A stretch of 34,419 nucleotides of DNA, taken from a virus (Duplodnaviria; Heunggongvirae; Uroviricota; Caudoviricetes). How positions within the stretch are numbered: the stretch's first letter is position 1; each line of letters starts with the position of its first letter. The notes below the pieces were generated by a model. That model made no database searches. It was not told where the DNA came from and worked only from the letters and a program-made list of their open reading frames with translations. Location: IMG/VR virus record IMGVR_UViG_2671180847_000009. One strand, given 5' to 3'. Of this stretch, positions 521 through 29,628 are shown in pieces. The position numbers and the translations under genes were made by a program.

Positions 521-1004
521 GGGATGTGTATAGGGTGCCTTATCGGCCTTACCCTGGCAACCGATTGACGGGGAAGTTGCCTTCCCCGTCGCGGTTTTCT
601 TACTGTCTACATTGTAAGAACGCCGCAAACTCCGCTCCCCAGAAGCTCATCCGTATCTCACACAGTGAACCGTGTAGCATCCAGATGATGAGGATTGCCG
701 TTACGCAGAACGTAATGGCCGTAAGCGATTTTTGCGACATAGCGCTTGCTCCTTTTTCGGGGAGGCGCTAACCTACGACTTGCGAAGGTTGTATGGCTAG
801 GGCCTCGGGTTAACGTTAAAGTTGACTCGGGGCCTTTCCACATTCGGCCTTCGGGTATTCCCTCCAGCCATCAGCCGAAAGGCACCCGCGCGAATTCTAG
901 CCTGGTTTTTTCCCTTGTTTCAATCCGTTGAGACTTATCAGCCTTCTGATGTAAAATTCCCGACCGCAGACATTATTCAGTCACGCATTTGATACATGCT
1001 TCCG

Positions 1005-1570: not shown

Positions 1571-3268
1571 TCAGGCGATAAGGTCGCCGTATTTTTCGCG
1601 CAGGCTCGTAGCCTGCAGGGCATCTGCGGCAAGTTCGCCGCTGTTCATTGGTGCGCCAGTGTTGTTGTGGGTGTGGTTTGCTGTGTGCGTGGCCAGCAAT
1701 TGAATCAGATCCAGAATATCAATCAACAACGTCAGCAGATTAAGTTCGGATTTTTCCCGTGAGCCACCGCGACCAATAAATACTGTCGGGGCTGTAAACT
1801 TCAGACCGCCGTCCGCCCGGCATGTTCTGCGGCCTCCCACGTTTTCAGTCAGGTCCTGCTCAATTGTGGATATTGTCCCTTTGAGTTTAGTCAGCAAATC
1901 CTGCGCTACCATCTGGATATGCTCGCTGGCTGCGATCGCGTAATGGCCGGTAGTAAGGTGCTCTATTTGTCCTGCCGCCAGCTTGCTGGTTCCCAGAACA
2001 CTGGTTATGTCGTTTGCCCGTACTGTGGTTGTTCTGGTTGTTGTGGTGCGCTCTTCTGCATCACTGTTAATTGTGCGGGTGGCTGACTGCTCCCTGATTT
2101 GCTGGTCTGTTTCTCTGTGCCAGCTTCCGTCAGTCGTGACGCGCTGAAACACTTCTGCGCGCTGTTGCTGCAGTTGTTCGCCGGGCTTTACATCAGGCAG
2201 GTTATGGCCAGCAGGTAAGATTTGCCTGATAACAGGTTTATCCGGGCGCCCTTCAATGTTAGATATTTCCACGATGGTGCCTGCCGGCGGGTAGGCAAAA
2301 CATCCCGCCTCGCTACCAGCCATCGGGACGGGGAGTGGGACTGCCGGGTAAACAGGCGTATCGCTTTTATCGTTGCCGTCCTCATCGAGCAGTTGCACGT
2401 CCACGGCGTAGCGTGGACGGAAGCTGTCGGCCACATCGCCCAGGGTGGCGGATTCCGTTGGTGCAATGACGCGCGCCAGCCTGGTGTGTAGTGTGCCGCT
2501 GGCCAGTTCCGGGAACTGTGTTTCCATCTGTCTGCGTAATGGTGATTTGGAGACAGGGCTGCCCGTGACGGTAAGGCGCTCCCACGTCAGAGTCATTTTC
2601 TCGTTGTTGAGGGCTACGCGGGTAATACGCCCGGTGGGAAGATTCACGCCCGGTCGCACAGTTTCCATGAACATGATGTCGATGCTGTTTCCGCCGCTTT
2701 GCCCGAGAGCGTACTGTTGCGGAATATCCGGCATCGTAATACTGGCAAATCGTGAATCAGCGGCGCTTCCCACAAATACAGAACCGTCCGGCATTGGGTG
2801 CCAGACGTAATCGCTGATACTGAATGCGCGCCCCAGCTGGCTGAGTAGCTGCGTTCCGCTGCCGCTGTGGGTGATGTAGGGGGTTGGTGTGTTGACATAA
2901 TCCGCGTCCGGGGTGATAAAAACGATGCCGCTTTGTCGTCCCAGATTATCTAACACCTCCCGCAACGTCGGGTGTTGCATGGAGCAGGGGAAATCAAAAT
3001 CCAGCACAGCAGCTGCTTCACGGATAAAAAGGCGGCGCGAACCATTTTCGGCGGGTTGGTCGCGTTCAACGTAGCCGGAGAAATAGCGCCAGACTTCACC
3101 GTCACGGCCGAGATCAATTTGTACCATTGCGCCGGCAAGGCTTTTTTCTGGTGACAGATTATTAACAGAAATGAAGCCACGACCGGCAGCATTCAGGGTA
3201 AGAACAAGGCTTATATCGGCAATTTCCACCCGTTCGCCATTAATCATGCAGCGTTGTATCAATTTCAT
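1571..3268 (-). CDS. Phage tail/baseplate protein, 565 aa (possibly central hub or spike; P2 gpD-like by position)
   Basis: Last gene of the late tail operon, start overlaps stop of upstream gene (ATGA coupling); size and position suit a baseplate hub. No motif recognised with certainty. Confidence 0.4.
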   Translation of the reverse strand: MKLIQRCMINGERVEIADISLVLTLNAAGRGFISVNNLSPEKSLAGAMVQIDLGRDGEVWRYFSGYVERDQPAENGSRRLFIREAAAVLDFDFPCSMQHPTLREVLDNLGRQSGIVFITPDADYVNTPTPYITHSGSGTQLLSQLGRAFSISDYVWHPMPDGSVFVGSAADSRFASITMPDIPQQYALGQSGGNSIDIMFMETVRPGVNLPTGRITRVALNNEKMTLTWERLTVTGSPVSKSPLRRQMETQFPELASGTLHTRLARVIAPTESATLGDVADSFRPRYAVDVQLLDEDGNDKSDTPVYPAVPLPVPMAGSEAGCFAYPPAGTIVEISNIEGRPDKPVIRQILPAGHNLPDVKPGEQLQQQRAEVFQRVTTDGSWHRETDQQIREQSATRTINSDAEERTTTTRTTTVRANDITSVLGTSKLAAGQIEHLTTGHYAIAASEHIQMVAQDLLTKLKGTISTIEQDLTENVGGRRTCRADGGLKFTAPTVFIGRGGSREKSELNLLTLLIDILDLIQLLATHTANHTHNNTGAPMNSGELAADALQATSLREKYGDLIA

Positions 3269-3840
3269 GTTTTCCCTTCCTCTTTCACGCTCCCGATGCC
3301 AACAGCATCCAGACCAGAGCCAACGGCATCATTGATTTTTTTCCAGAACGAACTTTGCGTATTCATGCCTTTGTCTGGTGCCTGTTCGCTACCGTTCTGG
3401 GTCTGCTGTCTGGCGATGGTTTTCTGCGAACCGCTGCGTGCGGATGCTTTCTCTGGCACGCTTAATTTTTCCCTGAGAGTAAAGGTAACCTGCCAGTGCA
3501 TTTTTCCCTGTTGTTCCGTGGCATCAATGCCACCAGAAAATACCCCCTGTCGCATATTGATTGCCTTCGCGGTAGCGTTAGCAATGCGATATGTTTTTTT
3601 AGCACCGTTGCTTTCTGTTGCCTCCGCAAGCTGAAAAATACGGGTCAGAATAGCTTCATCATTAAAATCAATAACCCCCGACACGCGCAGCTCTTTAGCC
3701 TTGTTTCCCTGCTGGGCGCTCGTGGTGCTGGTTGACTGTCCGGACATATCTTTGTCCGGTAGTTGCATGGTGGCGCTGACGGTGATGTTGCGCAGCAGAA
3801 TGGCTTCCCCGTCAAGCGCAAGGACAATCATCTGGGTCAT
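3265..3840 (-). CDS. Putative phage tail protein, 191 aa (gpU-like by position)
   Basis: Co-oriented, translationally coupled ORF between the 237-aa ORF and the 565-aa tail protein. Confidence 0.35.
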   Translation of the reverse strand: MTQMIVLALDGEAILLRNITVSATMQLPDKDMSGQSTSTTSAQQGNKAKELRVSGVIDFNDEAILTRIFQLAEATESNGAKKTYRIANATAKAINMRQGVFSGGIDATEQQGKMHWQVTFTLREKLSVPEKASARSGSQKTIARQQTQNGSEQAPDKGMNTQSSFWKKINDAVGSGLDAVGIGSVKEEGKT

Positions 3841-4525
3841 GTAGTGCCTCCCTTAGTGATGAGAGATTATCGCCGACGAACAGCATCACAGCTGTAAAAA
3901 CCCACTCGGGGTGTGGGATGTTTTTTTGTATCAGCACTGCAGCCTGGCTAAGGGCTCCCTTGTAGCAAAAGCGCCACACCGGGCAAAATTTTTGCCGGAG
4001 TGCAGCCTGCTGATCAGCGATTTCCTGTAAGGCTTTATCTCTCGCATTCATGAACTGATGCAGTGATGATGACAATGTTTCCGGTGATGTGGCGGCAGGA
4101 GTGGCTGCCTGTGCAATGGTTGCCGCCAGCGACATGCTGCGAGTGGTCTGTGTCGACAGCATTATCGGTTCCGGAAGTGATGTTGCCGGTCTGGCGGGGA
4201 TTTGCATTCTGCTGATGGCCAGTGAAAGCTGGCTGGAGATCATGCGGGACATTCGTCCCACCTCCGGCAACGGAAATGCGCCTGAAAATTGCCTGGCGAG
4301 TGATAAAAACTCGTCAGCAGAAGGAGCGCAAAATAACAGCGCCACAATGTCCTTTTCTGTGTTTTCTTTCAGATAGGGTAAAAGTGCAGATACAGCATTT
4401 TCGGGGCTGAGATAACGCCCCGATGGTTTGATGTTTCCGGTATTTTCTGACCATGGATGCAGGCAAACCACAGAGCATTTAATGTTCATGGCTGACGGGC
4501 GCAGAATTGCCTTTTCCCATTTCAT
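3812..4525 (-). CDS. Hypothetical protein, 237 aa, unknown function (cargo candidate at end of fibre region)
   Basis: Only long ORF spanning 3841-4521; start overlaps stop of upstream tail-fibre assembly gene; Ala/Ser/Thr/Pro-rich low-complexity middle; no recognisable family. Confidence 0.4.
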   Translation of the reverse strand: MKWEKAILRPSAMNIKCSVVCLHPWSENTGNIKPSGRYLSPENAVSALLPYLKENTEKDIVALLFCAPSADEFLSLARQFSGAFPLPEVGRMSRMISSQLSLAISRMQIPARPATSLPEPIMLSTQTTRSMSLAATIAQAATPAATSPETLSSSLHQFMNARDKALQEIADQQAALRQKFCPVWRFCYKGALSQAAVLIQKNIPHPEWVFTAVMLFVGDNLSSLREALHDPDDCPCA

Positions 4526-5097
4526 TCTGACTCTCCAGCCTGAAAAGCGCGGATGTCGGCAAGATTATTAAGGCTATCCAGCACGTCCTTCATCTGTCGC
4601 TGACGGCGATAAATCTCGTCATTGCGATCGACCTGCGCCTGCGCCATTGCTGCCGCCAGTTCTTCCAGTTCCGGCATCGACAGTTTCACCTGTTGATTAT
4701 CGGCATCACCCCACGCAAGGGTGGTTCGTGCCGTATCGGATTTCGCCGCCATTACTACCGGATAAAGGCGGGCCAGTGAGTCGGGGCCAGCGTTCCATGT
4801 GCGGCCATTCCATTCGAACATGAACGGCTGCGCTTCCTGTTCTGTGCGCCATGCCTCAATTTCTCGTTTTTTAGCGTCCTTTGCTGCTTCCAGCATTTCA
4901 GGCGTAACAGTGAACGGGGCGATTTCGCCCCATTTGCCGCTTTGCAGTTCCTGCCAGATTTGCTGGCCTGTCGTCGCGGTGTCTTCTGGCGTGGCTGTGT
5001 ACGGAAGTGGGTCTTCCATTCCCTCAAACAGCACGTCGCAGTCAATCGCACCGGATTCGGTATAACGGGGACTGGTAATCTCTTTTATCTGCATCAT
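4522..5097 (-). CDS. Tail fibre assembly protein (chaperone), copy 2
   Basis: 191 aa; N-terminal region and acidic C-terminus typical of Tfa/gpG-type chaperones; directly follows a tail-fibre gene. Confidence 0.6.
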   Translation of the reverse strand: MMQIKEITSPRYTESGAIDCDVLFEGMEDPLPYTATPEDTATTGQQIWQELQSGKWGEIAPFTVTPEMLEAAKDAKKREIEAWRTEQEAQPFMFEWNGRTWNAGPDSLARLYPVVMAAKSDTARTTLAWGDADNQQVKLSMPELEELAAAMAQAQVDRNDEIYRRQRQMKDVLDSLNNLADIRAFQAGESE

Positions 5098-6389
5098 GCA
5101 ACCCTCACAAACAAAGAAACTAAGCCCCGGTTATAAAACTTAATATCCGGGCCGCCAGATAAAGCGACATATGTACCAGGCAGGGTATCCCCGTAGACAA
5201 ATGACCTCGCAGCAGCACTAAATCCTGACGTGCGATACTCCGCTTCAAAGACCACCTGCCGGAGTCTTGAGCCTGACACGCCTTGTGCACGAAGTAACGT
5301 AACCTCACTGCTGCCATCGTCCGGTAGGTATGCAGCAAGAACCAGGCCTCCGGGGAACGGAGGACGCTTTGATGTATTTTCTGTTGCATACAACAGTTGC
5401 ATCAGGCGCTTACGTGACCAGAACAACCGCGACCATGCTTTTGGCAGGTCTGACGGACGCATGGATTTTTTAACCAGTACCTGATATTTCGCAGGACCTT
5501 CACCGAATCCCCCACTGTATTCTGCATCACCATGAAACGTTATCCACCGACGCGCTTCTGCTTCAATACCGCCAGAGTCAATTCCGTATCGTATGTCTAT
5601 ATCCACAAGTCCACGGAAATAAGGTTGCCCCATGTCATACGCAATGATGGGATTATACGAAGTGCTACTCCCTTCAGATTGTGTTACCGCGTAACGTCCG
5701 GGGGTGACTTCGAACACCCATTTCAGAAATTCGGCGGGGCCATTTTGCGCGCTGAAATACACGACTTCCGACGAAGAGAATAAATGCCCGTATCCGAATG
5801 CACCGGGTAACGCCAGACGGCCTGCGGTGCGGTCGTAGATATCGCTCTGAACATCAAGCAAAGCAGCACCTTTCAACCCCAGATTGTCTCGGGATTCCTG
5901 TTGCGCCTCTTCCCCCTCTGCTGCAATTTCTGACAGTCGGTTAGGAGCTTTCAGCATTGATTTCAGCTCGGGGGTAATATCCACCTGCCAGCTCTGTGGA
6001 GGAACGGTAATTTGCGCAGCCTGAGCAATGCCGCTGTATATAATCGTGAAATTACGAATAAGTGACTCGCCAGTATGTTTCTGGCGAACAGGGGTTTTTA
6101 TTACGCCGCACAGTGTTCTGCTGGCCTGATGGATGAGGCAAATCCAGTCATAGCTGAATGCACAGCCATCAGGAACAACTGCGCTACACACAATATTGTT
6201 CGGGTTTAACTGGCCATAGGTCAGTTCATTCACAGCATATGTGATTTTTTCTTCCGGAACGGTATTATCTTCGCGCGTTGGTTCCCGCTCCATCAGAGCA
6301 AAAATAATAGCGTCAGGGCGTGCAGGTAAATTACTGGCTGCGCATTCAGCAACCCACTTTTCAAATGCTTTCGTCAACAGTGCGCTCAT
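5094..6389 (-). CDS. Tail fibre protein, second paralogue (431 aa)
   Basis: N-terminal ~150 aa shares architecture with the N-terminus of the 584-aa fibre (W-x-A-x-x-x-S/N-x-x-P-A-R-P-D, ...L-I-R-N/T-F); C-terminus is different. Confidence 0.55.
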   Translation of the reverse strand: MSALLTKAFEKWVAECAASNLPARPDAIIFALMEREPTREDNTVPEEKITYAVNELTYGQLNPNNIVCSAVVPDGCAFSYDWICLIHQASRTLCGVIKTPVRQKHTGESLIRNFTIIYSGIAQAAQITVPPQSWQVDITPELKSMLKAPNRLSEIAAEGEEAQQESRDNLGLKGAALLDVQSDIYDRTAGRLALPGAFGYGHLFSSSEVVYFSAQNGPAEFLKWVFEVTPGRYAVTQSEGSSTSYNPIIAYDMGQPYFRGLVDIDIRYGIDSGGIEAEARRWITFHGDAEYSGGFGEGPAKYQVLVKKSMRPSDLPKAWSRLFWSRKRLMQLLYATENTSKRPPFPGGLVLAAYLPDDGSSEVTLLRAQGVSGSRLRQVVFEAEYRTSGFSAAARSFVYGDTLPGTYVALSGGPDIKFYNRGLVSLFVRVA

Positions 6390-6395
6390 TACTTC

Positions 6396-6950
6396 TTAAT
6401 TCTCGCTAATGTTCTGCGGTAATTCTGGCCATACAATCGCGGCATACGATGCTTTATCTGTAACCTGACTGAAAGTCATCTGCTGTAGTGCTTTTGCATA
6501 AATACGGCATGCTTTCAGTTTTTCCCTGTCTTCGTCACTGATTAATCCCAGCAGCAGGTCTTTTTCCCATTCGCTGGTCATGATGCTGGCCCGTTGTAAC
6601 AGGGCATCGCGTTCATCTTCCGCTTTAAGTTTGTAGTCGAAGATAAAATTGCCATCGCGGTAGAACCAGTAACCCGACGCCTCAATGCGACGATTGGCGG
6701 TAATATCCGGTAGCTCAATCACGCTTTTATTTTCCGGGCAGATTGAGGTGATGTCTTTTCCGACCCAGACCACTTCGCCGGTTTCAACATAAATAACTTT
6801 CAGGGTGTCTGGCAGAAATTTTTCCTGGGCTTCGTGCCATTCCTGGCCATCCTCTGAGAACAACCACAATAAAAATTTATGCTGTCGCGCCAGCTGGTAT
6901 TGCTCAATTGTTTTAGGGTTTTGTACCGTAAGATTTTTTAAGTGCATCAT
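6396..6950 (-). CDS. Tail fibre assembly protein (chaperone), copy 1
   Basis: 184 aa, follows the long fibre gene; Tfa-like sequence features. Confidence 0.6.
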   Translation of the reverse strand: MMHLKNLTVQNPKTIEQYQLARQHKFLLWLFSEDGQEWHEAQEKFLPDTLKVIYVETGEVVWVGKDITSICPENKSVIELPDITANRRIEASGYWFYRDGNFIFDYKLKAEDERDALLQRASIMTSEWEKDLLLGLISDEDREKLKACRIYAKALQQMTFSQVTDKASYAAIVWPELPQNISEN

Positions 6951-6952
6951 AA

Positions 6953-8707
6953 TTACAAACTCGCTACATTCCGCCAGACGCCATTAATCAGAACCTGCAC
7001 CGGGCGGGCATTGGCCCAGTCCATACTTTCACCACCATCAAGACCGCTGATAAGGTGACCTGATGGTGCGTTCCCGCCACGCCCAATACCAATGGCACTG
7101 CCCAGACGCACATCCTGTACACCGCCTGTTTTGGTCTGATAGCGGGCATCAAAGTTTCCGTAGTCTGACGGTGTTACCCGTCCTGAAACATTCACTGCCC
7201 GGTTACTTTGTAACGCGCCATTCTGAAAACGGAATACGTGCTGACCATTGGCATAAACATCCAGCAGGCCGTCACCATTCTGTTTCAGGCCGGTATCGTT
7301 ATCCCCGAAAGCAATTGAGTTTCCGCCCAGCGCGTTCTGAACGCCGATACCTAATGCACCGTTTACTTTCGAACCGCCGCCAACAGATACCGGGTGAGAC
7401 ATCGAGACTTCACCCGTCCGCAGGTTAATGCTGAATGGTCGCAGGGGGCCAATATCGCCGTTTTCACCCTGATTTTCCTGTGTGGGAATAAGATGCAGGC
7501 ACTCTTCAGAGCGACGAAAAATCAGGCCAAAAGCTTCGTTGAAAATCCTCAGTGCATTAACGCCACGGATTTTCAGCTCCCCGGTCATGGTGTCGCCAGC
7601 GCGTTGAACGGCGCTTTCAGCTTTATCAACGGTGGGTTTCAGTCCGACGTTTTCAATAAACAGCGGTTTATTGGGAATGTCGCTGCCGTTGCGATTTTTC
7701 GCAAGACGTGCGTTGGCGTTATCCATTGCGATTTTTACCGCTTTTGACGTGGCGGCGCGGTCTTCTGCATCGCTGTCGGTGGCGTTGCTGTACTGCGCAA
7801 AGCCTTTTTCGGTCAGCGTGGCATCCGGGTGTCTGCGGGATTTTTCGTGTTCTGCCAGCGCGTTGCTTTGCTCTTCGTCGGGCGTCTGTGGGCGTAAATC
7901 CTGTGGGCCACCTGCTGTCAGTTTTGCAAGTGGCGCGACAAAGTGTTGGAAACCGTTCCCGTCTGTATAGGGCGCGTGTTCCTTGCGAGCGCAGAACGTA
8001 AAAACGGTGCTCCATTCGCCGGTAACAAATCCCTGCCAGCTTGCATCAATCCAGAGGGTATCCCCGACCGCAGCCGGCAGGCTGTAAGGTTCGCGCAGGC
8101 TGACGCGCAGACCTCCCACATACCCGATGCCGGCGGCAACAGTGGCGGTACCATCCTGATAGCTGACCTGAAAACCATCCCCCAGAAAAGCGGCTTCACC
8201 GTAGTGATCAAACGCCAGCAGCCGGCGGGCTTCATCCATTCCCGCAAGACGGGCAGTGAAATCAATCTGCCAGACATCAGCACTGACATCGATATGCATT
8301 GCTGCTGCAGCGCCGTCAAACTCCATGGAAAATGTGCGGATCAGGTTGTTTCCCTGCACGCCGTTCGCTGTTTTAATTTTTTGCTGACGAGGTGTGTGTG
8401 CAATCATGCAGAGCACGCCGCTTTCTTCGTTCAGCAGACCGATCCAGTTGTATTCGAAGTCGCCGACTGTCGTGTCCAGAATGATGGAAAACGCGGTCGC
8501 GTTCGGCGACAGGAGGCCGTACTGGGTGACCGGCGCACGATACTGAATCATGGATTCATCAGGGAGTATCTCATCGCGGGGGATCTCTGCGGATTCATCC
8601 TGTCCCGGAATATATGCAAAAACAAATGTATCCGGGCGCGCAGGTTTTCCACTGATGATTTGATTTGCGCACCAGTGTTCGTACTGTTCAGTAATAATCG
8701 TGCTCAT
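6953..8707 (-). CDS. Tail fibre protein (584 aa, P2 gpH-like)
   Basis: Conserved phage tail-collar N-terminus; Gly-rich C-terminal region typical of fibre tips; followed by a Tfa gene. Confidence 0.65.
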   Translation of the reverse strand: MSTIITEQYEHWCANQIISGKPARPDTFVFAYIPGQDESAEIPRDEILPDESMIQYRAPVTQYGLLSPNATAFSIILDTTVGDFEYNWIGLLNEESGVLCMIAHTPRQQKIKTANGVQGNNLIRTFSMEFDGAAAAMHIDVSADVWQIDFTARLAGMDEARRLLAFDHYGEAAFLGDGFQVSYQDGTATVAAGIGYVGGLRVSLREPYSLPAAVGDTLWIDASWQGFVTGEWSTVFTFCARKEHAPYTDGNGFQHFVAPLAKLTAGGPQDLRPQTPDEEQSNALAEHEKSRRHPDATLTEKGFAQYSNATDSDAEDRAATSKAVKIAMDNANARLAKNRNGSDIPNKPLFIENVGLKPTVDKAESAVQRAGDTMTGELKIRGVNALRIFNEAFGLIFRRSEECLHLIPTQENQGENGDIGPLRPFSINLRTGEVSMSHPVSVGGGSKVNGALGIGVQNALGGNSIAFGDNDTGLKQNGDGLLDVYANGQHVFRFQNGALQSNRAVNVSGRVTPSDYGNFDARYQTKTGGVQDVRLGSAIGIGRGGNAPSGHLISGLDGGESMDWANARPVQVLINGVWRNVASL

Positions 8708-9339
8708 GCTTCATCTGCCTGTAATGTGTAATGTTCCACGGACAGGCCGTAATGTCCTGCCTGTAGCGAAGCGGTTAACCAGATGGTGTCCTTTCTCACC
8801 GTTGCTTCTGCTGTGTGATACCTGTAATGGCCATCGAATGTGCCGGCTGTCAGCCGGGCAGTGGTTGTATTGATTACCTGAAAGAAATAGCGCCTGCAGG
8901 TACGACCATACTGGCGCACGAGCTGCATCATCAGCGCGTTGTTTTCACTTAACTGGGTGTCATTAATGCGCAGTAAAATAACGTCCCAGTCATGCTGCAG
9001 TTGCCGTTCCAGTGTTTTAACGTCTCCCACGCCAAGACGCTTAAAGATGCGTTCGAAGCCGGCGCGTTCGCCAGAGTCCTGAGCGTTAATAAACGCGTGT
9101 TTCACTCTTAAGCGAAATAACGAAACCGGCTCACCTTTAAATCGGGTGATATTGCGCTGATAAGCCAGCAGGTTAAGTAAAGGCTCTGCGCAGGTGTCGA
9201 CATCAATCTGCTGTAGTGGCCACGTCAGCCAGCTGTATACCTTTTCCCAGTAGCGATGCGATGAATGTGCCAGCGTTAACGGCTCGCCTTTATTCATCCA
9301 GGTGGGGAGCGGAAATTCAGGGATCTCCGGAAGTTTCAC
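8704..9339 (-). CDS. Baseplate/tail protein (P2 gpI-like), 211 aa
   Basis: Position between baseplate J-like gene and tail fibre gene, overlapping start/stop coupling. Confidence 0.45.
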   Translation of the reverse strand: MKLPEIPEFPLPTWMNKGEPLTLAHSSHRYWEKVYSWLTWPLQQIDVDTCAEPLLNLLAYQRNITRFKGEPVSLFRLRVKHAFINAQDSGERAGFERIFKRLGVGDVKTLERQLQHDWDVILLRINDTQLSENNALMMQLVRQYGRTCRRYFFQVINTTTARLTAGTFDGHYRYHTAEATVRKDTIWLTASLQAGHYGLSVEHYTLQADEA

Positions 9340-19491: not shown

Positions 19492-20382
19492 TTACACCAG
19501 GTTAAAAGTTTCGCCACCGGCCGGATTGTTGCCCGGCAGCTTCGTGGCGTCCTTGCTGAGTTCAGCAAATGCGGTTTCCATACTGGTAACCTTCTCCGCG
19601 ATGGCGTTCACCGTGGAGAACAGCTTTTCGCCCTGCTCGGTGGTCAGCGTGAAGGTTTTGTCGTCCTTGTTGTTCTGTTCTGCGTTGTCCTGCCCCTGAT
19701 CGCCGGTGCTGCCTTCCAGCTTGTTATCATCGGTATCTTTCGGGGCATCCTTCGCGCTGAACTGCGCGACGTTTTCTTCCAGTTTTTCCAGGCGTTCGCC
19801 GGTTTTGTTGATGGCGTCCATCAACTGACCGAACTGTTTTTCGTTCATATCGTTTTCCTGTTTGTTGCGTCCCATGGAGAAAAGGCCGGAAAAGAAACTG
19901 CGTTTGGCCTGCTCGTCATCAGACTGCAGCGTGAAATTCAGTTCTTCTGCATTCCCCATGTGAATGGAATCTCCCTGCGAAAATTGCAGGCGGGTGGTGT
20001 TGATGCTGGCCGGTGTGTCAGTCACGGCGATACCGGATACAAAGAATTTGCCTGTCCCCAGATAGTTTTCCTTTACCTCTATGGAGGTGAAAAGTTTTTG
20101 CCCGGCCTCGTTGGCTTCGGTCAGAAAGCGGTTGGGTATCAGGCGGGCTTTCAGCTGCACTTTATCACCGACTTTTTCCGCCTTCAGTGCATCAACAAGA
20201 CCATAGTTATTGGTGAAAGCACGCCAGCCGGCGCTGGCATGAAACGGCCAGAGCATGGCGGTGTGTTCGTCCGGGTTATAAACCTCGGCGGCATCCGTCA
20301 GCCACTTTGGATCAATTTCCCGACCGTCGATGGTGGGGCCTGAAGTGGCTACGACCACCCAGTCTGTTTTCAGTTTCGACAT
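19492..20382 (-). CDS. O: Capsid scaffolding protein, P2 gpO-like
   Basis: 296 aa; N-terminus (GPTIDGREI..., VTDTPAS) matches the gpO family; acidic C-terminal half. Confidence 0.8.
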   Translation of the reverse strand: MSKLKTDWVVVATSGPTIDGREIDPKWLTDAAEVYNPDEHTAMLWPFHASAGWRAFTNNYGLVDALKAEKVGDKVQLKARLIPNRFLTEANEAGQKLFTSIEVKENYLGTGKFFVSGIAVTDTPASINTTRLQFSQGDSIHMGNAEELNFTLQSDDEQAKRSFFSGLFSMGRNKQENDMNEKQFGQLMDAINKTGERLEKLEENVAQFSAKDAPKDTDDNKLEGSTGDQGQDNAEQNNKDDKTFTLTTEQGEKLFSTVNAIAEKVTSMETAFAELSKDATKLPGNNPAGGETFNLV

Positions 20383-20576
20383 CTGAATTAACCCGCTGAT
20401 AAAAATTAAACTGGCGTTATTTAACGGAGAAATAAAAATGTCGTCATCTGATTAATTTCCGGTACTTTCGGATATGCGTATATATCCGAAAAATACCGAA
20501 AAGCGATATTCGTTTTTAAAAAAGCCTTTGCTGAAAATGCATAAATTAAAATTGCATCAGTAGGTGAGGTTTATTT
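20383..20576. promoter_or_regulatory. Divergent late promoter region between O and P
   Basis: AT-rich 194-bp intergenic region with dyad TTCGGATAT-N6-ATATCCGAA (about 20467-20490) and ATGCA-N11-TGCAT (about 20541-20565). Confidence 0.4.
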
Positions 20577-22364
20577 ATGGCGTATTCTGATGAGGTGATT
20601 GCTGCTGCAAAATCGCTCTATCTGAAAAGACACACACCAAAAGAAATACAAAAGAAGCTCGGACTGAACAGCCCGCGAATTGTTTATTACTGGGCGACAA
20701 AGTTTGAGTGGTACACGCAGCTCAATACGGAAGGCGTGGAAGATGTTATCGCCCGGCGTCTCGCTGTGCTGGCGGAACGCGACCATAAGACTCAGGAAGA
20801 ACACGATGAGCTTGATCGCCTGATTGGTCATCACGTCAAACTGATGTCGGTCAGAAACAAGCACACGGAACGAATGGCTGAGATTGCGCGAATGGGAGTG
20901 GACATTCCCCAGCCTGGCCGTTATGGAAAAGAAGAACGCGGAGAAAAAGGTGCAGGTAAGAAAGAGCGCCCCCGTAAAGCTAATGACGTTTCCGGACTGA
21001 CTGCTGAAAGTTTTGAGCCGTTTACGAAGAAGTTGTTTGCTTATCAGTTGCGCCTGCGTGAAAACAAATTCCGCCGTGTACGCAATCTACTTAAATCCCG
21101 CCAGATTGGGGCTACGTATTACTTCGCGTTTGAGGCATTTGAAGATGCAGTATTAACCGGCGACACACAGATATTTTTATCGGCATCAAAACGTCAGGCC
21201 GAAGTGTTCCGTACTTATATTGTAAAAATTGCACAAACGGAATTTGGCATTCCCATTAAAGGCAATCCGGTTAAGTTAAGTAATCTGGCTGAACTGTATT
21301 TTCTGGCGACCAACAGTAACACAGCGCAGTCAAACAGCGGCCACCTGTATATTGATGAATACCTGTGGATCCCTGGTTTTCGCCGTCTCAATGAAGTGGC
21401 ATCAGGGATGGCCACCCATAAACACTGGCGCATTACCTATTTCTCCACGCCGTCATCCAAAACACACCAGGGTTACCCGTTCTGGTCTGGCGATGAATGG
21501 CGCAAAGGTGATCCGAAACGAAAAGGGGTTGAGTTTCCGTCCTTTGATGAGCTGCGCGATGGTGGGCGTGAATGTCCAGATGGTCAGTGGCGCTATGTGG
21601 TTACGCTGGAAGATGCCATTGCCGGCGGCTTTAACCTTGCTGACATCAACGAGCTGCGCGAGCGATACAACGAAACAGCGTTCAATATGCTGTTTATGTG
21701 TGTGTTTGTGGATGACAAAGAGAGCGTCTTTAAATTCGATGATCTTGTGCGTTGTGGTGTTGATGTCAGTACGTGGGAGGATTTTCACCCGGAAGAGCCC
21801 ATGCCATTTGGTAACCGTGAAGTGTGGGGCGGCTTTGACCCTGCGCGCTCCGGCGATAACGCCACATTTGTTGTGCTGGCACCGCCGCTGGTTGCGGCAG
21901 AACGATTCCGCGTGCTGGAAAAACACCACTGGCGCAGCATGTCATTCCAGTTTATGGCAGAGCGTATCCGCAGCATTAAGGCGCGCTATAACATGACATT
22001 TATCGGCATTGACGTCACCGGTCTTGGCTACGGTGTCTTTGAGCTGGTTCAGGGATTTGCCCGCCGTGAAACAGTGGCCATTCATTACAGCGTGGAATCC
22101 AAAAACCGCCTGGTGATGAAGATGCTGGATCTGATTTACGCCAACCGTATTGAGTGGGATGAAGAAGCCACGGATATTCCGGCATCGTTCCTGGCCATTC
22201 GTCAGGAATCCACCAACAGCGGCAATAAAGTCACTTTCACCGCCGAACGTAGCGAAGAAACCGGGCACGCTGACATCTTCTTTGCCATAGCTCATGCCGC
22301 AAGTAATGAACCCCTGAACTATAAGCACAAGCGCAAATCAACATGGATCCTGTCAGATGAGTAA
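20577..22364 (+). CDS. P: Terminase large (ATPase) subunit, P2 gpP-like
   Basis: 595 aa; GGTGAGG RBS; gene order P then Q ending at a cos-like region as in P2. Confidence 0.85.
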   Translation: MAYSDEVIAAAKSLYLKRHTPKEIQKKLGLNSPRIVYYWATKFEWYTQLNTEGVEDVIARRLAVLAERDHKTQEEHDELDRLIGHHVKLMSVRNKHTERMAEIARMGVDIPQPGRYGKEERGEKGAGKKERPRKANDVSGLTAESFEPFTKKLFAYQLRLRENKFRRVRNLLKSRQIGATYYFAFEAFEDAVLTGDTQIFLSASKRQAEVFRTYIVKIAQTEFGIPIKGNPVKLSNLAELYFLATNSNTAQSNSGHLYIDEYLWIPGFRRLNEVASGMATHKHWRITYFSTPSSKTHQGYPFWSGDEWRKGDPKRKGVEFPSFDELRDGGRECPDGQWRYVVTLEDAIAGGFNLADINELRERYNETAFNMLFMCVFVDDKESVFKFDDLVRCGVDVSTWEDFHPEEPMPFGNREVWGGFDPARSGDNATFVVLAPPLVAAERFRVLEKHHWRSMSFQFMAERIRSIKARYNMTFIGIDVTGLGYGVFELVQGFARRETVAIHYSVESKNRLVMKMLDLIYANRIEWDEEATDIPASFLAIRQESTNSGNKVTFTAERSEETGHADIFFAIAHAASNEPLNYKHKRKSTWILSDE

Positions 22365-23391
22365 AAAGAAAAAATACCCCGTGTTACACGATGGCGTGGC
22401 AAAAAAAACAGCCAGCAAAATGACGTTTATTGAATTTGGTGACCCAGAACCGGTCGCTGCATGGGGCTGTTATTACGGCTCGCTCTGGGATGGCTATAAC
22501 GGCTGGTACACGCCGCCCATTGAGCGCATGGATCTCGCCATGTTGTCCAATATCGCACCGTATCACGGCGCGGTATTGCGTGCGCGCGTCAATATGATCA
22601 TGCAGGGTTTTCGGGGTGGTGGTGGTATGACACACGCCGCCATGGCGGCAGCAGTAACCAATCTGGTGATATTCGGGGATATGGGGTTGCTTAAAGTGCG
22701 CAATGGCTTCGGTCGAGTGGTGCGCCTGCATACGTTACCTTCTCTGTACCTGCGGCGTAACAACGAGGGTGGCACGGTGATTGTGCAGGCGGCACTGGAA
22801 GATCTCGTTTACCCGCCAGGCGAAGTGGTGTTCGTGGCCATTTATGACCCGCAACAGCAGGTTTACGGTGTCCCGGATTATATTCACGGGATGGAATCCG
22901 CCATGCTGAATGTGGATGCCACCCGCTTTCGCCGCAAGTATTACAAGAACGGCGCACATCTTGGTTATATCCTGTATTCCACTGACCCGGATATGGATCC
23001 CGAGCTCGAGGCGGAATTCCGTAAAAAGATAGAGGCGTCAAAAGGGGCGGGCAATTTTAAATCCATGTTTATCAATATACCGGGCGGAGACAAAGAAGGC
23101 GTTAAGGTGATCCCTATCGGGGATTCAGGTACAAAAGATGAGTTCCTGAATATAAAAACCATCAGTGCCCAGGATCAGCTCGTTGCGCACCGTTTCCCAC
23201 CCGGACTTGCCGGCATCATTCCCGCAAATACGGCCGGGCTTGGTGATCCACTGAAATCCCGCGAGGCATATTACAGGGATGAGGTTATCCCGATGCGCCG
23301 CCTGATTATGGAGGGGATCAACAGCGACCCGGATATCAGACGACTGGGGGAGGTGAAATTTATTCTTGATTTTGATGAACCCATGGAGTGA
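22357..23391 (+). CDS. Q: Portal (capsid portal vertex) protein, P2 gpQ-like
   Basis: 344 aa; start overlaps P stop (ATGA); gpQ-family sequence character. Confidence 0.85.
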   Translation: MSKKKKYPVLHDGVAKKTASKMTFIEFGDPEPVAAWGCYYGSLWDGYNGWYTPPIERMDLAMLSNIAPYHGAVLRARVNMIMQGFRGGGGMTHAAMAAAVTNLVIFGDMGLLKVRNGFGRVVRLHTLPSLYLRRNNEGGTVIVQAALEDLVYPPGEVVFVAIYDPQQQVYGVPDYIHGMESAMLNVDATRFRRKYYKNGAHLGYILYSTDPDMDPELEAEFRKKIEASKGAGNFKSMFINIPGGDKEGVKVIPIGDSGTKDEFLNIKTISAQDQLVAHRFPPGLAGIIPANTAGLGDPLKSREAYYRDEVIPMRRLIMEGINSDPDIRRLGEVKFILDFDEPME

Positions 23392-23456
23392 TGTGCGGTA
23401 TGGGGAAAGAGCGGGTAAAATCGGTGGCAGTAAAACGCTGTTCTGGGAGGTGGAAA
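23392..23456. other. Candidate cos (cohesive end) region
   Basis: G-rich segment ggtatggggaaagagcgggtaaaatcggtggc just past Q, where P2 places cos; shares GGGGAAAG with the recalled P2 cos core. Exact cut sites not determinable. Confidence 0.3.
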
Positions 23457-23714
23457 ATGCGCAGACAGAAAGCGCGATGTCATTGCTGCGGTGCACATGC
23501 AGTGATTGAGAAAACAGCCTGGAAAACCGATCAGTTTGCTGATGTGTATTACCGTTGCACCCGTCTCGAGTGCGGACATACCTGGGTGATGAATCTGACC
23601 TACTCGCACACACTGGTGCCCAGCGGGCTGGAGAATGGTGTGTTAAAGCTGTTGATTGAGCGGATGCGTCCGGAAGAAAAACAAATGGCTCTGGAGTTGT
23701 TGCAGGCCGGATAG
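23457..23714 (+). CDS. ogr: Ogr/Delta-type zinc-finger transcriptional activator homologue (85 aa)
   Basis: C-x2-C...Y-x-R-C-x4-C-x-x-T-W spacing matches P2 Ogr (C-x2-C-x22-C-x4-C); start at third ATG (23457) with GGGAGG RBS. Confidence 0.6.
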   Translation: MRRQKARCHCCGAHAVIEKTAWKTDQFADVYYRCTRLECGHTWVMNLTYSHTLVPSGLENGVLKLLIERMRPEEKQMALELLQAG

Positions 23715-23736
23715 CTGACGCGCTTCGCTTGTCCAA

Positions 23737-23784
23737 CCCGGAACGGGCGCACAAAGAATTTGCGCACCCGTTCCGGGTTTTCTT
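23737..23784. terminator. Strong hairpin terminator between convergent ogr-like and Rrf2 genes
   Basis: 11-bp stem cccggaacggg/cccgttccggg (23737-23747 / 23767-23777) followed by ttttctt. Confidence 0.6.
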
Positions 23785-24142
23785 ATTCAATGACAGACAA
23801 CTGATAATTTGTGTCTTCCTGCAGGCTGGTTAAAGAAATATTATCCAGTGCAGCCAGAATAACGTGCTGTGTATATAATCCGGAACATTTCATTGCCCGG
23901 ACAATATCACCAACACTGTAATTTTCTTTTGTCGGGATATATCCACCACCCGGGCCGCGTGTGGCTTTTACCAGGCTACTTTCCCGTAAATATCTGAATA
24001 TTTGCTCCAGATATGACAGTGAAACGGTTTCTTTGCTTAATTGCCGGAGCGAGATTGGCTTTCCGGTGTACTGTTTCACAAATTTAATCATTACCATAAC
24101 TGCAACTGATGCACGCTGGCTTCCGGAATTATCTTTCATCAT
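23783..24142 (-). CDS. Rrf2-family transcriptional regulator (119 aa, non-Fe-S type)
   Basis: S-L-S-Y-L-E-Q-I-F-x-x-L-R...R-G-P-G-G-G-Y matches the Rrf2/IscR HTH signature; only one Cys, so no cluster ligands; start at MMKDNS with GGAAG RBS. Confidence 0.7.
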   Translation of the reverse strand: MMKDNSGSQRASVAVMVMIKFVKQYTGKPISLRQLSKETVSLSYLEQIFRYLRESSLVKATRGPGGGYIPTKENYSVGDIVRAMKCSGLYTQHVILAALDNISLTSLQEDTNYQLSVIE

Positions 24143-24153
24143 GATTACTTCCA

Positions 24154-24441
24154 TTAATGGCATAAATTGATGGAGCGGGTCAGTGAATAAAGAGGCAATA
24201 CATTCCATCCCTTAGAGCGCCAGCTGTCTGCAACATCTTTACTTCTTGTTATCGCCGGTATTCCAATAGGATTATTTGCGTGCATCCATACCACTGGCTC
24301 TGCTTCCAGTGATGCAAGTGCGATTTCCAGTGCGATTAACATATTGTGATCGTCTTCATCAAGACCGAACGGGATGTCTTCGCGCCACGATTTAAACTCT
24401 GTGATTTTACGTTGTAACCATTCTTTGGTAATGGTGGACAT
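24154..24441 (-). CDS. Hypothetical protein (95 aa), unknown function
   Basis: Start MSTITKEW at 24441 with AGGAG RBS at spacing 5; ends 11 nt before the Rrf2 start. Confidence 0.45.
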   Translation of the reverse strand: MSTITKEWLQRKITEFKSWREDIPFGLDEDDHNMLIALEIALASLEAEPVVWMHANNPIGIPAITRSKDVADSWRSKGWNVLPLYSLTRSINLCH

Positions 24442-24455
24442 AGTTACTCCTGTTT

Positions 24456-24770
24456 TCACTTCGGGAAAAACGCCTGAATATTCTTTTTCACCTGCTGCAT
24501 ATGGGGGGCGCTGTCTGCTGCTGGTTGCGCCGGTTTTTCAGGCTGTACTGGTAGCGGTGGCATCCGTATTTCGTCTTCTGACCATTCTGCCAGCGAATAC
24601 GCCAACGCGGGGGTGCGTTTTATAAGAGCCAGTCCGGCCAGAAAAGCCGCGCGTTGTGCGCGGCTGCGTTCGGAGGCTGGCAGGCTGTCGAGGTAACTGC
24701 ACGCCTCCCGTTCGCTCTTGACGACGGCGGGCTTCAGATAGAAACTTATCCGTCTGGTTGGTGTCGTCAT
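24456..24770 (-). CDS. parR: ParR/StbB-like partition adaptor (104 aa)
   Basis: Start MTTPTRR (24770) 5 nt after parM stop; segment ISFYLKP...LDSLPASERSRAQRAAFLAGLAL resembles R1 ParR (IAFKLNP...LDSIPQGERSRLNRAALTAGLAL, recalled). Confidence 0.5.
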   Translation of the reverse strand: MTTPTRRISFYLKPAVVKSEREACSYLDSLPASERSRAQRAAFLAGLALIKRTPALAYSLAEWSEDEIRMPPLPVQPEKPAQPAADSAPHMQQVKKNIQAFFPK

Positions 24771-24774
24771 TGAT

Positions 24775-25734
24775 TTACTCCTTGTCCATTGCGTACAGCC
24801 CATTAACCAGAGCAAACTGTGGCACCCCGTCCGCGATGAAAGTCGCATTAACTCCGCAGGCTTCGCGGATAGCGGGTGCCACAATCTCCGCCCCTCCACC
24901 GACAACCATCACCCGCCCGTAACCCGAAAAACCCGCCAGCGCGCGGATCACGCGTTGTTTCAGTGTTTCTTCCTTTTCACGAATAACCGCCATCAGGCTG
25001 GCGTAATGCGCGTCATTGTGGATGTGCTGGCGCAACCAGGCTTCATCATGGCGATGTTCGATAATGGTATTGGCGATGTGGTGACTGGTACGCATACCGT
25101 TGGTGGCCATCACCGACAGCACGGCATCGGCCATCAGGGAAACGCCTACGTGTGGATCGCAAAACACCTGGCTGATACCTGCCAGTTGTCCCTGAACCTT
25201 TGCCACATCCAGCGTGGTTCCGCCCAAATCCACAATCAGCAGGGATTCAAACGGACTCATGTCAGCCAGTGCTTTAAAGCCAGCCGGAATGGATTCAGGC
25301 ATAACCCGTACATTACGGATAGTGAATGCTTCGCCGTTCTGGTATTCCACCGGGCGCATAACGTTTGCTTTTTTGCGGTTGATGTTGGCCATGTCCGGCT
25401 GTGCGTTTGTGTCGAAATACTCGCTCAGTGGCAGGGTGACAACCACATCCACCTCCTGTGGCGTGATGCCTGATTTGACCAGCGCATGATGAATGGCAAT
25501 GACATTCACATCGCTGTACTGGTATTGCGTGTCGGTCGTCTGGACAAAGCGATCGCTGACCGGATCAAAACCATAGCGCACGCCATCAAGCATGTAGTTC
25601 GCGGGCTGCGTGCCACCGAACGGCGCAGACCATTCCGACTTGAAGCTGTTCGGGCTGATGGCGTTGCGGCGTTCGCCGTTCTCAGTCCATGCCAGCTTGA
25701 TGTTGGTGGAGCCGTCGTCGATACAAATTTTCAT
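24775..25734 (-). CDS. parM: ParM/StbA actin-like segregation ATPase (319 aa)
   Basis: N-terminus MKICIDDGSTNIKLAW...ISPNSFK...YSDVNVIAIHHAL...LLIVDLGGTTLD...VMVVGGGAE parallels plasmid R1 ParM (MLVFIDDGSTNIKLQW..., recalled) across the ASKHA phosphate and adenosine motifs. Confidence 0.7.
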   Translation of the reverse strand: MKICIDDGSTNIKLAWTENGERRNAISPNSFKSEWSAPFGGTQPANYMLDGVRYGFDPVSDRFVQTTDTQYQYSDVNVIAIHHALVKSGITPQEVDVVVTLPLSEYFDTNAQPDMANINRKKANVMRPVEYQNGEAFTIRNVRVMPESIPAGFKALADMSPFESLLIVDLGGTTLDVAKVQGQLAGISQVFCDPHVGVSLMADAVLSVMATNGMRTSHHIANTIIEHRHDEAWLRQHIHNDAHYASLMAVIREKEETLKQRVIRALAGFSGYGRVMVVGGGAEIVAPAIREACGVNATFIADGVPQFALVNGLYAMDKE

Positions 25735-29308: not shown

Positions 29309-29628
29309 GATATGTGGCCTCTTGTAGTAAGTTGTGAAAACTCACCATCCAGAGGTTCCAAGCTCGGGGTGGTGAGACGTACAGGGTTGGAACTACCGGC
29401 TACAAGAGATCCCGGCCCGACCGAAATCGGCCCCGTACGCCCCACCATAATTCGTGTGCGAAAAAGACGTGGCAATACAGTTCGCACAAAAAAACCGCTG
29501 GCGCGGTTGTGCGCTCTTGTAGTCTGCGGGGTTCCAATCCCGGCACCCGTTTTATGAGGTGCAGCGGAAATGTAACCTGACTGATTGCGGCATGGCAAGC
29601 GGTTTTTTTGTGTGTGCATAGTGGTTAC
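29309..29628 (-). promoter_or_regulatory. Structured 320-bp intergenic element inside the early operon (terminator/attenuator-like hairpins, possible promoter or small RNA)
   Basis: No credible ORF; minus-strand RNA contains hairpin CCGC-GCCA-GCGG followed by U7 (plus 29488-29506) flanked by mutually exclusive stems CGCACAA/TTGTGCG and GTGCGAA/TTCGCAC; further long-range complementarity CTCTTGTAG/CTACAAGAG (29320-29328/29401-29409). Confidence 0.3.

Follow-up and report, generated by a model that had tools for sequence, protein, structure and literature searches.

A small gene encoding an Ogr/Delta-type zinc finger, termed ogr here, lies directly behind the portal gene Q in the window (the whole 34,419-nt stretch of DNA that was analysed), and its position raises the question of whose late promoters its product serves. 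The first-pass annotation had proposed that it was either the phage late activator, relocated relative to P2, or a second Delta-like regulator of the kind found in satellites. The analysis points, with a probability of roughly 80%, to ogr being the resident late-gene activator of a P2-family (Peduoviridae) prophage of the K139/phiO18P/ESSI-2/SI7 branch, a function whose assignment rests on Pfam-level homology, the protein being far from P2 Ogr in sequence. The gene and its location are already known as such, the former being annotated by RefSeq and the latter published for K139-like phages. Coordinates of the features are collected in Table 1.

Table 1. Positions of ogr, its neighbours and the associated DNA elements in the window
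Feature	Position	Strand	Description
O	19492-20382	divergent from P	Scaffold gene
Candidate activator-binding array	20457-20500	.	TTCCG-N5-TTCGG-N14-CCGAA-N5-CCGAA in the divergent O/P control region
P	20577-22364	+	Terminase large subunit, P2 gpP type; Pfam Terminase_6N, Terminase_6C, Terminase_5
Q	22357-23391	+	Portal gene, P2 gpQ type; Pfam Phage_portal PF04860; RefSeq annotation in relatives
Q-ogr spacer	23391-23456	+	Holds TAAAAT box (23416-23421) and GGGAGGTGG (23445-23453); without terminator
ogr	23457-23714	+	Ogr/Delta-family zinc-finger gene, 85 aa, K139-Orf13 / ESSI-2 subfamily
Apparent intrinsic terminator	23735-23790	+	Stem-loop 23735-23779, then T-rich run TTTTCTTATTC
Cargo block	23783-25734	-	Rrf2-like regulator, hypothetical gene, StbB/ParR-like, ParM; Pfam Rrf2, Plasmid_stab_B, StbA_N, ParM

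Gene model and genomic context

The interval 23392-23784 contains a single real gene, ogr, whose reading frame is open from 23388 and which encodes 85 residues from its ATG start codon to its stop codon, the ATG being preceded by a strong ribosome-binding site, GGGAGGTGG. The same 258-nt coding sequence is called by RefSeq in related E. coli prophages at 100% nucleotide identity, its product being the identical 85-aa protein WP_001254198.1, which carries the name 'ogr/Delta-like zinc finger family protein'. Comparison with the 79%-identical relative E7-1N7 yielded 39 synonymous and 9 non-synonymous codon changes, from which pattern of substitution it is evident that ogr is a real coding gene under purifying selection. 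The start of ogr lies 65 nt past the Q stop codon, on the strand common to P, Q and ogr, and the Rrf2-like gene, the hypothetical gene, StbB, ParM and gpA are encoded on the opposite strand; the initial description of a gene immediately after the portal gene and on the strand opposite to the cargo was therefore accurate. P is the first gene in the P-Q(-ogr) transcription unit.

Downstream of ogr, a hairpin was identified with an outer stem of 13 bp, plus inner pairs, and a calculated free energy of -36 kcal/mol (z -5.2) on the + strand and of -45.8 kcal/mol (z -6.8) on the - strand, which has no U-tract, the T-rich run TTTTCTTATTC being present 3' of the hairpin on the + strand only. By these features the element looks like a canonical intrinsic terminator in the + direction only, and it presumably terminates ogr and also read-through from P-Q. 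The stop codon of the Rrf2-like gene (23783-23785) lies 3 nt past the stem, so that ogr and the Rrf2-like gene converge on the hairpin. The convergence recorded earlier was thereby confirmed, with the corrections that the gene starts at 23457, that the stem is longer than the 11 bp assigned to it and that the T-run serves one of the two strands. A hairpin followed by a T-run occurs at the equivalent place in ESSI-2, SI7 and E7-1N7, with a different sequence in each, as expected for a conserved terminator function.

Homology with relatives spans Q, the spacer and ogr, and breaks no more than about 20 nt past the ogr stop codon, beyond which E7-1N7 and ECL27977 carry genes unlike those of the window. 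Because homology ends just past ogr and the cargo is swapped in the relatives, ogr belongs to the conserved P-Q block and not to the cargo. This bears on the alternative that ogr is a satellite-style (P4 Delta-like) or supernumerary cargo activator, which hijacks or cross-activates the late promoters of other P2-family phages and is not the phage's own. In favour of that alternative, ogr sits within the gpA-to-gpQ interval, an accessory-gene hotspot in E. coli P2-like phages (Rousset et al., PMC9122126); however, it is conserved with P and Q while the adjoining cargo is exchanged. Judged by the gene content, the accessory hotspot here begins after the terminator, and the cargo is made up of the Rrf2-like gene, the hypothetical gene, StbB and ParM.

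The gene had also been described as lying at the cos end. When the P2 cos junction was aligned locally, in either orientation, with positions 23340-24000, chance matches of 14-16 nt were all that resulted, with no P2-like cos in this range. An octamer common to P2 cos, GGGGAAAG at 23402-23409, is wrongly oriented with respect to Q and not significant. The ends of the phage records give no cos position, the SI7 record being split inside the portal gene and those of K139 and PV94 not obviously end-arranged; the accessible text of the PV94 paper reports 16-nt 5' overhangs, and K139 is said there to have terminally redundant ends. A P2-like cos next to Q would fit the 65-nt spacer only, because conservation with ECL27977 ends right after ogr. 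The earlier placement at the cos end is accordingly a statement of synteny with P2 only.

Protein family and predicted fold

The Ogr protein was matched by the Pfam family PF04606 (Ogr_Delta) with 48.3 bits against a cut-off of 26.3 (E 9e-13), residues 7-53 covering positions 1-47 of the 47-position model. Its cysteines C8, C11, C34 and C39 form the pattern C-x2-C-x22-C-x4-C, which is invariant across 46 subfamily sequences and is the cysteine spacing stated for Ogr (PMC3931495). The Ogr-type finger (C-x2-C...C-x4-C) recognised at first pass was thus borne out, its spacing being accepted by the full Ogr/Delta HMM. The protein was also matched by PHROG 603, 'transcriptional regulator', with an E value of 3e-29. 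An AlphaFold2 model calculated with the subfamily alignment (mean pLDDT 91.6) consists of a three-stranded zinc ribbon (strands 14-24, 27-34 and 42-48) and two helices (61-69 and 72-84), and the zinc-ribbon fold is therefore predicted with confidence.

A total of 32 residues lie C-terminal of the Pfam domain, in agreement with the extension of about 35 residues noted initially. This tail is not peculiar to the window gene: P2 Ogr (72 aa) is shorter overall by 13 residues only, and alignments showed that the two-helix tail is kept across the K139-Orf13-type subfamily, of which it is a hallmark. Members of the subfamily typically comprise about 83-90 residues and have in common the motifs 'CGHTFV' and 'SHTLxPS' and a C-terminal L..L.PE..Q.AL.LL. 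Grouped at 50% identity, the subfamily falls into at least 150 clusters, and its members are encoded by at least 593 IMG/VR contigs. It also includes Delta-like proteins of 149-167 aa with two domains in tandem, which would accord with a satellite-style role, against which the Ogr of the window consists of a single domain of 85 aa.

Searches of sequence databases placed the protein apart from P2 Ogr. Using tblastn, the window Ogr retrieved 135 phage records, mainly from Burkholderia, Vibrio and Pseudomonas phages, and P2 Ogr retrieved 241, mainly enterobacterial, the composition of the two sets being unlike. A word-indexed homologue search recovered close relatives only, every one of which was named ogr/Delta-like, and a nucleotide search of phage records with the ogr locus gave no match. 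No NCBIfam family was matched by the window protein. Searching the PDB with a sequence profile gave sub-threshold zinc-ribbon matches only (RPB9 and TFIIS-type chains, E 0.03-0.1), and searching it with the AlphaFold2 model in Foldseek gave no match with E <0.1. In the literature, no experiment was found on any member of the K139-Orf13-type subfamily.

Start site and expression of ogr

A further ATG in the ogr frame, at 23391, shares bases with the Q stop codon (TGATG), and no stop codon interrupts the frame before 23457, which would permit the main product to be a 107-aa protein whose translation is coupled to that of Q, the 85-aa form then being a minor product or one made from an internal promoter only. 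An ATG overlapping the Q stop codon (as TGATG, ATGA or TAATG) and followed by an open frame is found in about six lineages, among them the window, E7-1N7, ESSI-2, SI7 and the IMG/VR locus L023; the spacer lengths (65, 56 and 50 nt) are separated by multiples of three; a product of 104-107 aa is predicted by some gene callers; and PHROG 603 scores 109.6 bits with the upstream extension and 103.5 bits without it, all of which argues for the longer form. However, four lineages (L074, L077/L079, L080/L081 and L082) have an upstream frame that is closed or out of phase, one of them with an Ogr 86% identical to that of the window, and the amino-acid sequence of the extension changes rapidly, its sole conserved stretch being the nucleotide hexamer TAAAAT, which is conserved at third codon positions and also where the frame is closed. 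With the strong ribosome-binding site in front of the ATG at 23457 and the 85-aa call by RefSeq also counting against it, the 107-aa protein is unlikely to be the main product; a Q-coupled form of this length is possible and is not required.

With the 85-aa gene model retained, expression of ogr was considered. The TAAAAT box is kept 32-38 nt upstream of the ogr start in nearly every lineage examined, the exceptions being near-variants (TGAAAT in L079 and TAAACT in L126), and it is kept also where the gene upstream is not Q. The position of a -35 element for the box is not conserved among lineages, and a sigma-70 consensus scan of 22900-24400 returned no promoter. The box is taken to be the -10 element of a weak or regulated promoter belonging to ogr itself; it provides a testable activator-promoter candidate, useful for annotation and engineering.

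The Q-ogr spacer gave a negative result in the terminator scan, and its RNA folding was no better than that of shuffled sequences (z -0.49). Since there is no terminator between Q and ogr, and only the one after ogr, transcripts from the P promoter should include ogr. By analogy with P2, read-through from P-Q into ogr should then produce positive feedback. In P2, ogr ends the late F operon, its own promoter lies within the 81-nt D-ogr spacer and the terminator is common to both transcripts; in the P2 record, ogr has a promoter annotation of its own, and the terminator is labelled 'rho-independent terminator for ogr transcript and F operon'.

Host prophage and gene order among relatives

The region is 97-99% identical to chromosomal prophages present in a small minority of E. 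coli genomes, the Q-ogr segment being found in 46 of 5,426 complete genomes. The element of strain SC418 sits between flk and pdxB and carries a full P2-family gene set, consisting of integrase, C-type repressor, Cox, gpA, P, Q, O, N and M together with genes for head completion, sheath, tube, tape measure, baseplate, fibres and lysis.

A subfamily HMM was built from 46 members and used to search the 34,419 nt of the window and the SC418 prophage with 16 kb of flanking sequence. Exactly one Ogr-family ORF was identified in the window and one in the SC418 prophage and flank, and P2 Ogr as a query gave no match in either. A regular-expression scan of the six frames of the window found no second plausible Ogr-type finger. 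One further C-x2-C...C-x4-C match, at 13981-14073 on the - strand, belongs to an out-of-frame ORF overlapping the holin gene, has no match to the subfamily HMM and was dismissed as chance. SI7, a fully annotated relative, has a single Ogr-type gene, and no other candidate late activator is annotated in SI7 or in the annotated related prophages. The wider search for another ogr, in the SC418 related prophage and its flank, thus brought none to light, and the suggestion of a second, Delta-like regulator did not hold, ogr being the only, single-domain member of its family in a complete prophage. The satellite-style alternative is further opposed by the gene content of the host element, which has full head, tail, lysis, replication and integration functions, and by the occurrence of ogr at the same position in free-living, plaque-forming phages, for which a late activator is a necessity; it is considered highly improbable.

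The order P, Q, ogr, terminator and converging replication or cargo genes is that of K139, phiO18P, ESSI-2 and SI7, and it is shared by the majority of 80 related IMG/VR loci that were inspected. The homologue in K139, a Vibrio phage, is orf13, annotated as 'zinc-finger protein'; ESSI-2 is a Cronobacter, phiO18P an Aeromonas and SI7 a Salmonella phage. The genera with this order are Longwoodvirus (K139), Bielevirus (phiO18P), Seongnamvirus (ESSI-2) and Irrigatiovirus (SI7). Placement of ogr beside the portal gene has been stated for K139 and Smhb1 (PMC8537503), and in the Burkholderia phages KS5 and KL3 ogr lies within the early operon (PMC3091744). As read from these gene orders, the late activator has no fixed position in the Peduoviridae, with at least three places in use (downstream of the tail operon in P2, in the early operon in KS5 and KL3, and after P-Q here and in the relatives), and the position after P-Q is the known standard for one large branch. 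P2 is therefore the wrong yardstick for gene order in the family. Of the proposal that ogr is the phage late activator relocated, the first part is thus the most likely reading, but the second holds only with P2 as the reference.

A candidate operator between O and P

The inner part of the array in the divergent O/P control region is a perfect 24-bp dyad, TTCGGATATGCGTATATATCCGAA at 20467-20490, corresponding to TTCGGATAT-N6-ATATCCGAA, which occurs once in the window against 0.02 occurrences expected by chance. The outer pentamers (TTCCG at 20457-20461 and CCGAA at 20496-20500) are phased by 10 bp from the inner ones, and across 25 distinct segments the outer pentamer reads TTC[GCT]G at 37 of 50 positions. 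The array is centred at 20478.5, lying 96.5 bp from the ATG of O and 98.5 bp from that of P. The dyad is kept in the O/P spacers of E7-1N7, ECL27977, ESSI-2 and K139, spacers that are otherwise not alignable, and its distance from the O start codon is 96.5-97.5 bp in the window, E7-1N7, ECL27977 and ESSI-2 and 106.5 bp in K139.

Scanning of IMG/VR identified the dyad in 45 contigs, in 38 of which it lies between O and P homologues. Some of the O and P homologues flanking these dyads are only 33-60% identical to those of the window. In two further loci, L030 and L052, an Ogr homologue closely precedes the dyad and a block of tail genes without head genes closely follows it, and in the short locus L038 the dyad is likewise downstream of an Ogr homologue. 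The whole contigs of L030 and L052 consist of the Ogr homologue, a few small ORFs and tail genes. Four occurrences (L011, L017, L040 and L050) were set aside as chance, being without O, P and Ogr homologues and without outer pentamers.

Of 45 distinct flanks, 19 have a hexamer resembling a -10 element (A at position 2, T at position 6) at 41-43 nt past the inner pentamer, and 7 have one at 31-32 nt, one helical turn closer, tail-block promoters being counted. On this spacing, the array is estimated to lie at roughly -45 to -88 from each late start site. Its 5-N14-5 geometry is that of the P2 pF site, GGTTG-N14-CAACC. The motif TGT-N12-ACA was found neither in the O/P spacer nor in the other late-region spacers.

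The array is accordingly presented as a candidate operator, which Ogr would bind, for both divergent late promoters. A looser dyad scan of the whole window (TTCGG-N13..19-CCGAA, one mismatch) found no second convincing site. The objection may be raised that, with a single array, the head, lysis and tail genes would all have to be expressed from one control region or from sites of unrecognised type. Another phage regulator, such as Cox, C or a MarR-like protein, could also be the binder. As a testable operator candidate for late promoters, the array at 20457-20500 would aid the annotation and engineering of prophages and tailocin-like clusters.

A further alternative is that Ogr is a zinc-ribbon regulator with another target (for example the adjacent cargo or early genes, or host genes), and that the O/P array is bound by a different protein. 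The great distance from P2 Ogr, the absence of TGT-N12-ACA and the indirect assignment of array binding would be consistent with this, as would a LexA-type box (CTGT-N8-ACAG) upstream of the homologue in K139-like relatives, which shows regulation to vary by lineage. However, Ogr homologues are found together with the array even in L030 and L052, the syntenic link to the late packaging operon persists across genera and no other candidate late activator is annotated, and this alternative is regarded as improbable, if less so than a satellite-style role.

Proposed regulatory circuit

With ogr as the resident late activator, the following circuit is proposed. A basal promoter in the 65-nt Q-ogr spacer, with TAAAAT as its -10 element, would supply the first activator molecules. 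Ogr would then bind the four-pentamer array, midway between the divergent genes O and P, and would switch on both late promoters, in each of which a -10-like hexamer lies about 42 nt past the inner pentamer and a good -35 is lacking, with Ogr touching RNA polymerase by analogy with P2 Ogr. Finally, the activated P-Q transcript would enter ogr and reinforce synthesis of the activator, following the logic of the P2 F operon.

A more far-reaching reading, which is put forward tentatively and as somewhat less probable than its contrary, is that the K139-Orf13-type branch constitutes a functionally distinct class of late activator in four respects, namely its array, its C-terminal module, its wiring to the packaging operon and its tail-only clusters. 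Such a class would use a 44-bp array, TTCGG-N5-TTCGG-N14-CCGAA-N5-CCGAA, in place of TGT-N12-ACA; its C-terminal two-helix module would perhaps serve for oligomerising on the array; its gene would close the packaging operon as the last cistron, a long isoform coupled to Q being optional; and it would also drive tail-only (tailocin-like) clusters, e.g. L030 and L052.

Comparison with known systems

The closest known counterparts are K139 Orf13 and its equivalents in phiO18P, ESSI-2, SI7 and Smhb1, which like the window Ogr are PF04606-family proteins of about 83-90 aa with the C-terminal tail SHTLxPS...LxPExxQxALxLL, encoded directly after P-Q on the same strand, with a terminator facing replication or cargo genes. 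K139 also has the TTCGGATAT-N6-ATATCCGAA dyad between O and P. However, the window protein is only 38-51% identical to the members of this group, whose downstream cargo is unlike that of the window, and K139 differs in having a small additional ORF, orf14, that separates Q from orf13, and in carrying upstream of its homologue a LexA-type box that is absent from the window.

P2 Ogr belongs to the same Pfam Ogr/Delta family and has the same C-x2-C-x22-C-x4-C zinc site, so that the alignment with Ogr called for at first pass agrees in the spacing of the cysteines but yields an overall identity of just 19% (MAFFT), with no alignment by BLASTP. The NCBIfam Ogr equivalog NF007241 scores 177.6 bits with P2 Ogr, whereas the window Ogr is unmatched, and the C-terminal two-helix tail is absent from the P2 protein. 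In both phages, ogr is the last gene of a late operon strand and has a short spacer, its own promoter (a candidate here) and a common terminator, and the presumed role, activation of divergent pO and pP from one midway site, would also be common to the two. The P2 gene, in contrast, follows the tail F operon next to attP, whereas that of the window follows P-Q. Late promoters of the P2 Ogr-type class carry TGT-N12-ACA centred near -55 and are activated through the RNA polymerase alpha subunit; the candidate site in the window is TTCGG-N14-CCGAA with flanking pentamers.

P4 Delta, which activates P2-type late promoters, is likewise a member of the Ogr_Delta zinc-finger family. Delta consists of two Ogr-like domains (166 aa according to its record annotation) and is encoded by a satellite without structural genes, whereas the Ogr of the window is a protein of one domain and 85 aa encoded in a complete prophage.

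Accessory modules of the prophage

The Rfam matches to C4 antisense RNA and isrK were located upstream of the gpA operon, and the region containing them looks like a c4-type immunity or antirepressor module in the style of P1/P7, carried within a P2-family prophage. The complete related prophage of E. coli strain SC418 has an SPFH-domain gene in place of this region. The SC418 counterpart of the window's left end additionally encodes a regulator of the Com family, along with a DNA methyltransferase. The cargo block containing the partition genes and the Rrf2-like regulator is partly swapped in relatives. The ParM of the window comprises StbA_N and C-terminal ParM domains and, together with the StbB/ParR-like protein, constitutes a plasmid-type partition pair in prophage cargo; the prophage carrying this pair is integrated in the chromosome and encodes an integrase. 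Coordinates of the features are listed in the table.

Coordinates of accessory features, the rejected 128-aa ORF and the tail-only loci
Feature	Position	Strand	Remarks
C4 antisense RNA	29365-29452	-	Rfam, 79 bits, gathering-level
isrK Hfq-binding sRNA	29488-29562	-	Rfam, 71 bits, gathering-level
Cargo block: ParM, StbB/ParR-like, Rrf2-like regulator, small hypothetical gene	24456-25734 + 23783-24441	-	Between ogr terminator and gpA
Hok/Gef-type small toxin ORF	600-740	-	Near the window's left end, past the last tail-region gene
128-aa ORF with C-x2-C...C-x2-C motif	13924-14310	-	Other frame than the overlapping holin gene (14024-14320)
Tail-only locus L030	about 1750-14527		IMG/VR contig of ~14 kb
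Tail-only locus L052	1-13750		IMG/VR contig of ~14 kb

Rejected candidates

Between M, the gene for the small terminase subunit, and the head-completion gene lies a G+C-rich spacer of 98 nt (17638-17735) that contains CTTTCCCCG, a 9-mer also present in the reverse complement of P2 cos. Its orientation is wrong with respect to P2, and as a P2-like cos it was judged to be a chance match. The 128-aa ORF was rejected as an Ogr-type finger, as it gave no match to the Ogr subfamily HMM (46 members of the K139-Orf13/ESSI-2-type subfamily), and is probably spurious.

Ogr homologues in related loci

In the related IMG/VR loci L030 and L052, with which L038 was grouped, an Ogr homologue, together with a handful of small membrane ORFs and the four-pentamer array (the candidate activator-binding site), is followed by tail genes only, encompassing a tail protein, sheath, tube, chaperone, tape measure, baseplate and fibre-region genes. 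No homologues of O, N, M, P, Q or A were detected in these three loci, which could represent either tailocin-like clusters with Ogr-type control or trimmed prophage predictions.

The LexA/SOS-box-like motif CTGT-N8-ACAG was found approximately 60-80 nt 5' of the Ogr homologues in four K139-like Vibrio loci (L013, L014, L016 and L045). This placement hints that the late activator of the K139-like lineage could be coupled to the SOS response. The motif was absent near ogr in the window, where its two matches lie at 5381 and 26564.

Seven representative proteins of the ogr subfamily (P0021, P0024, P0026, P0028, P0038, P0043 and P0120) are 149-167 aa long, and the 85-aa query aligns in two stretches of each. 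Like P4 Delta, these seven representatives have two domains in tandem, but they belong to the K139-type subfamily.
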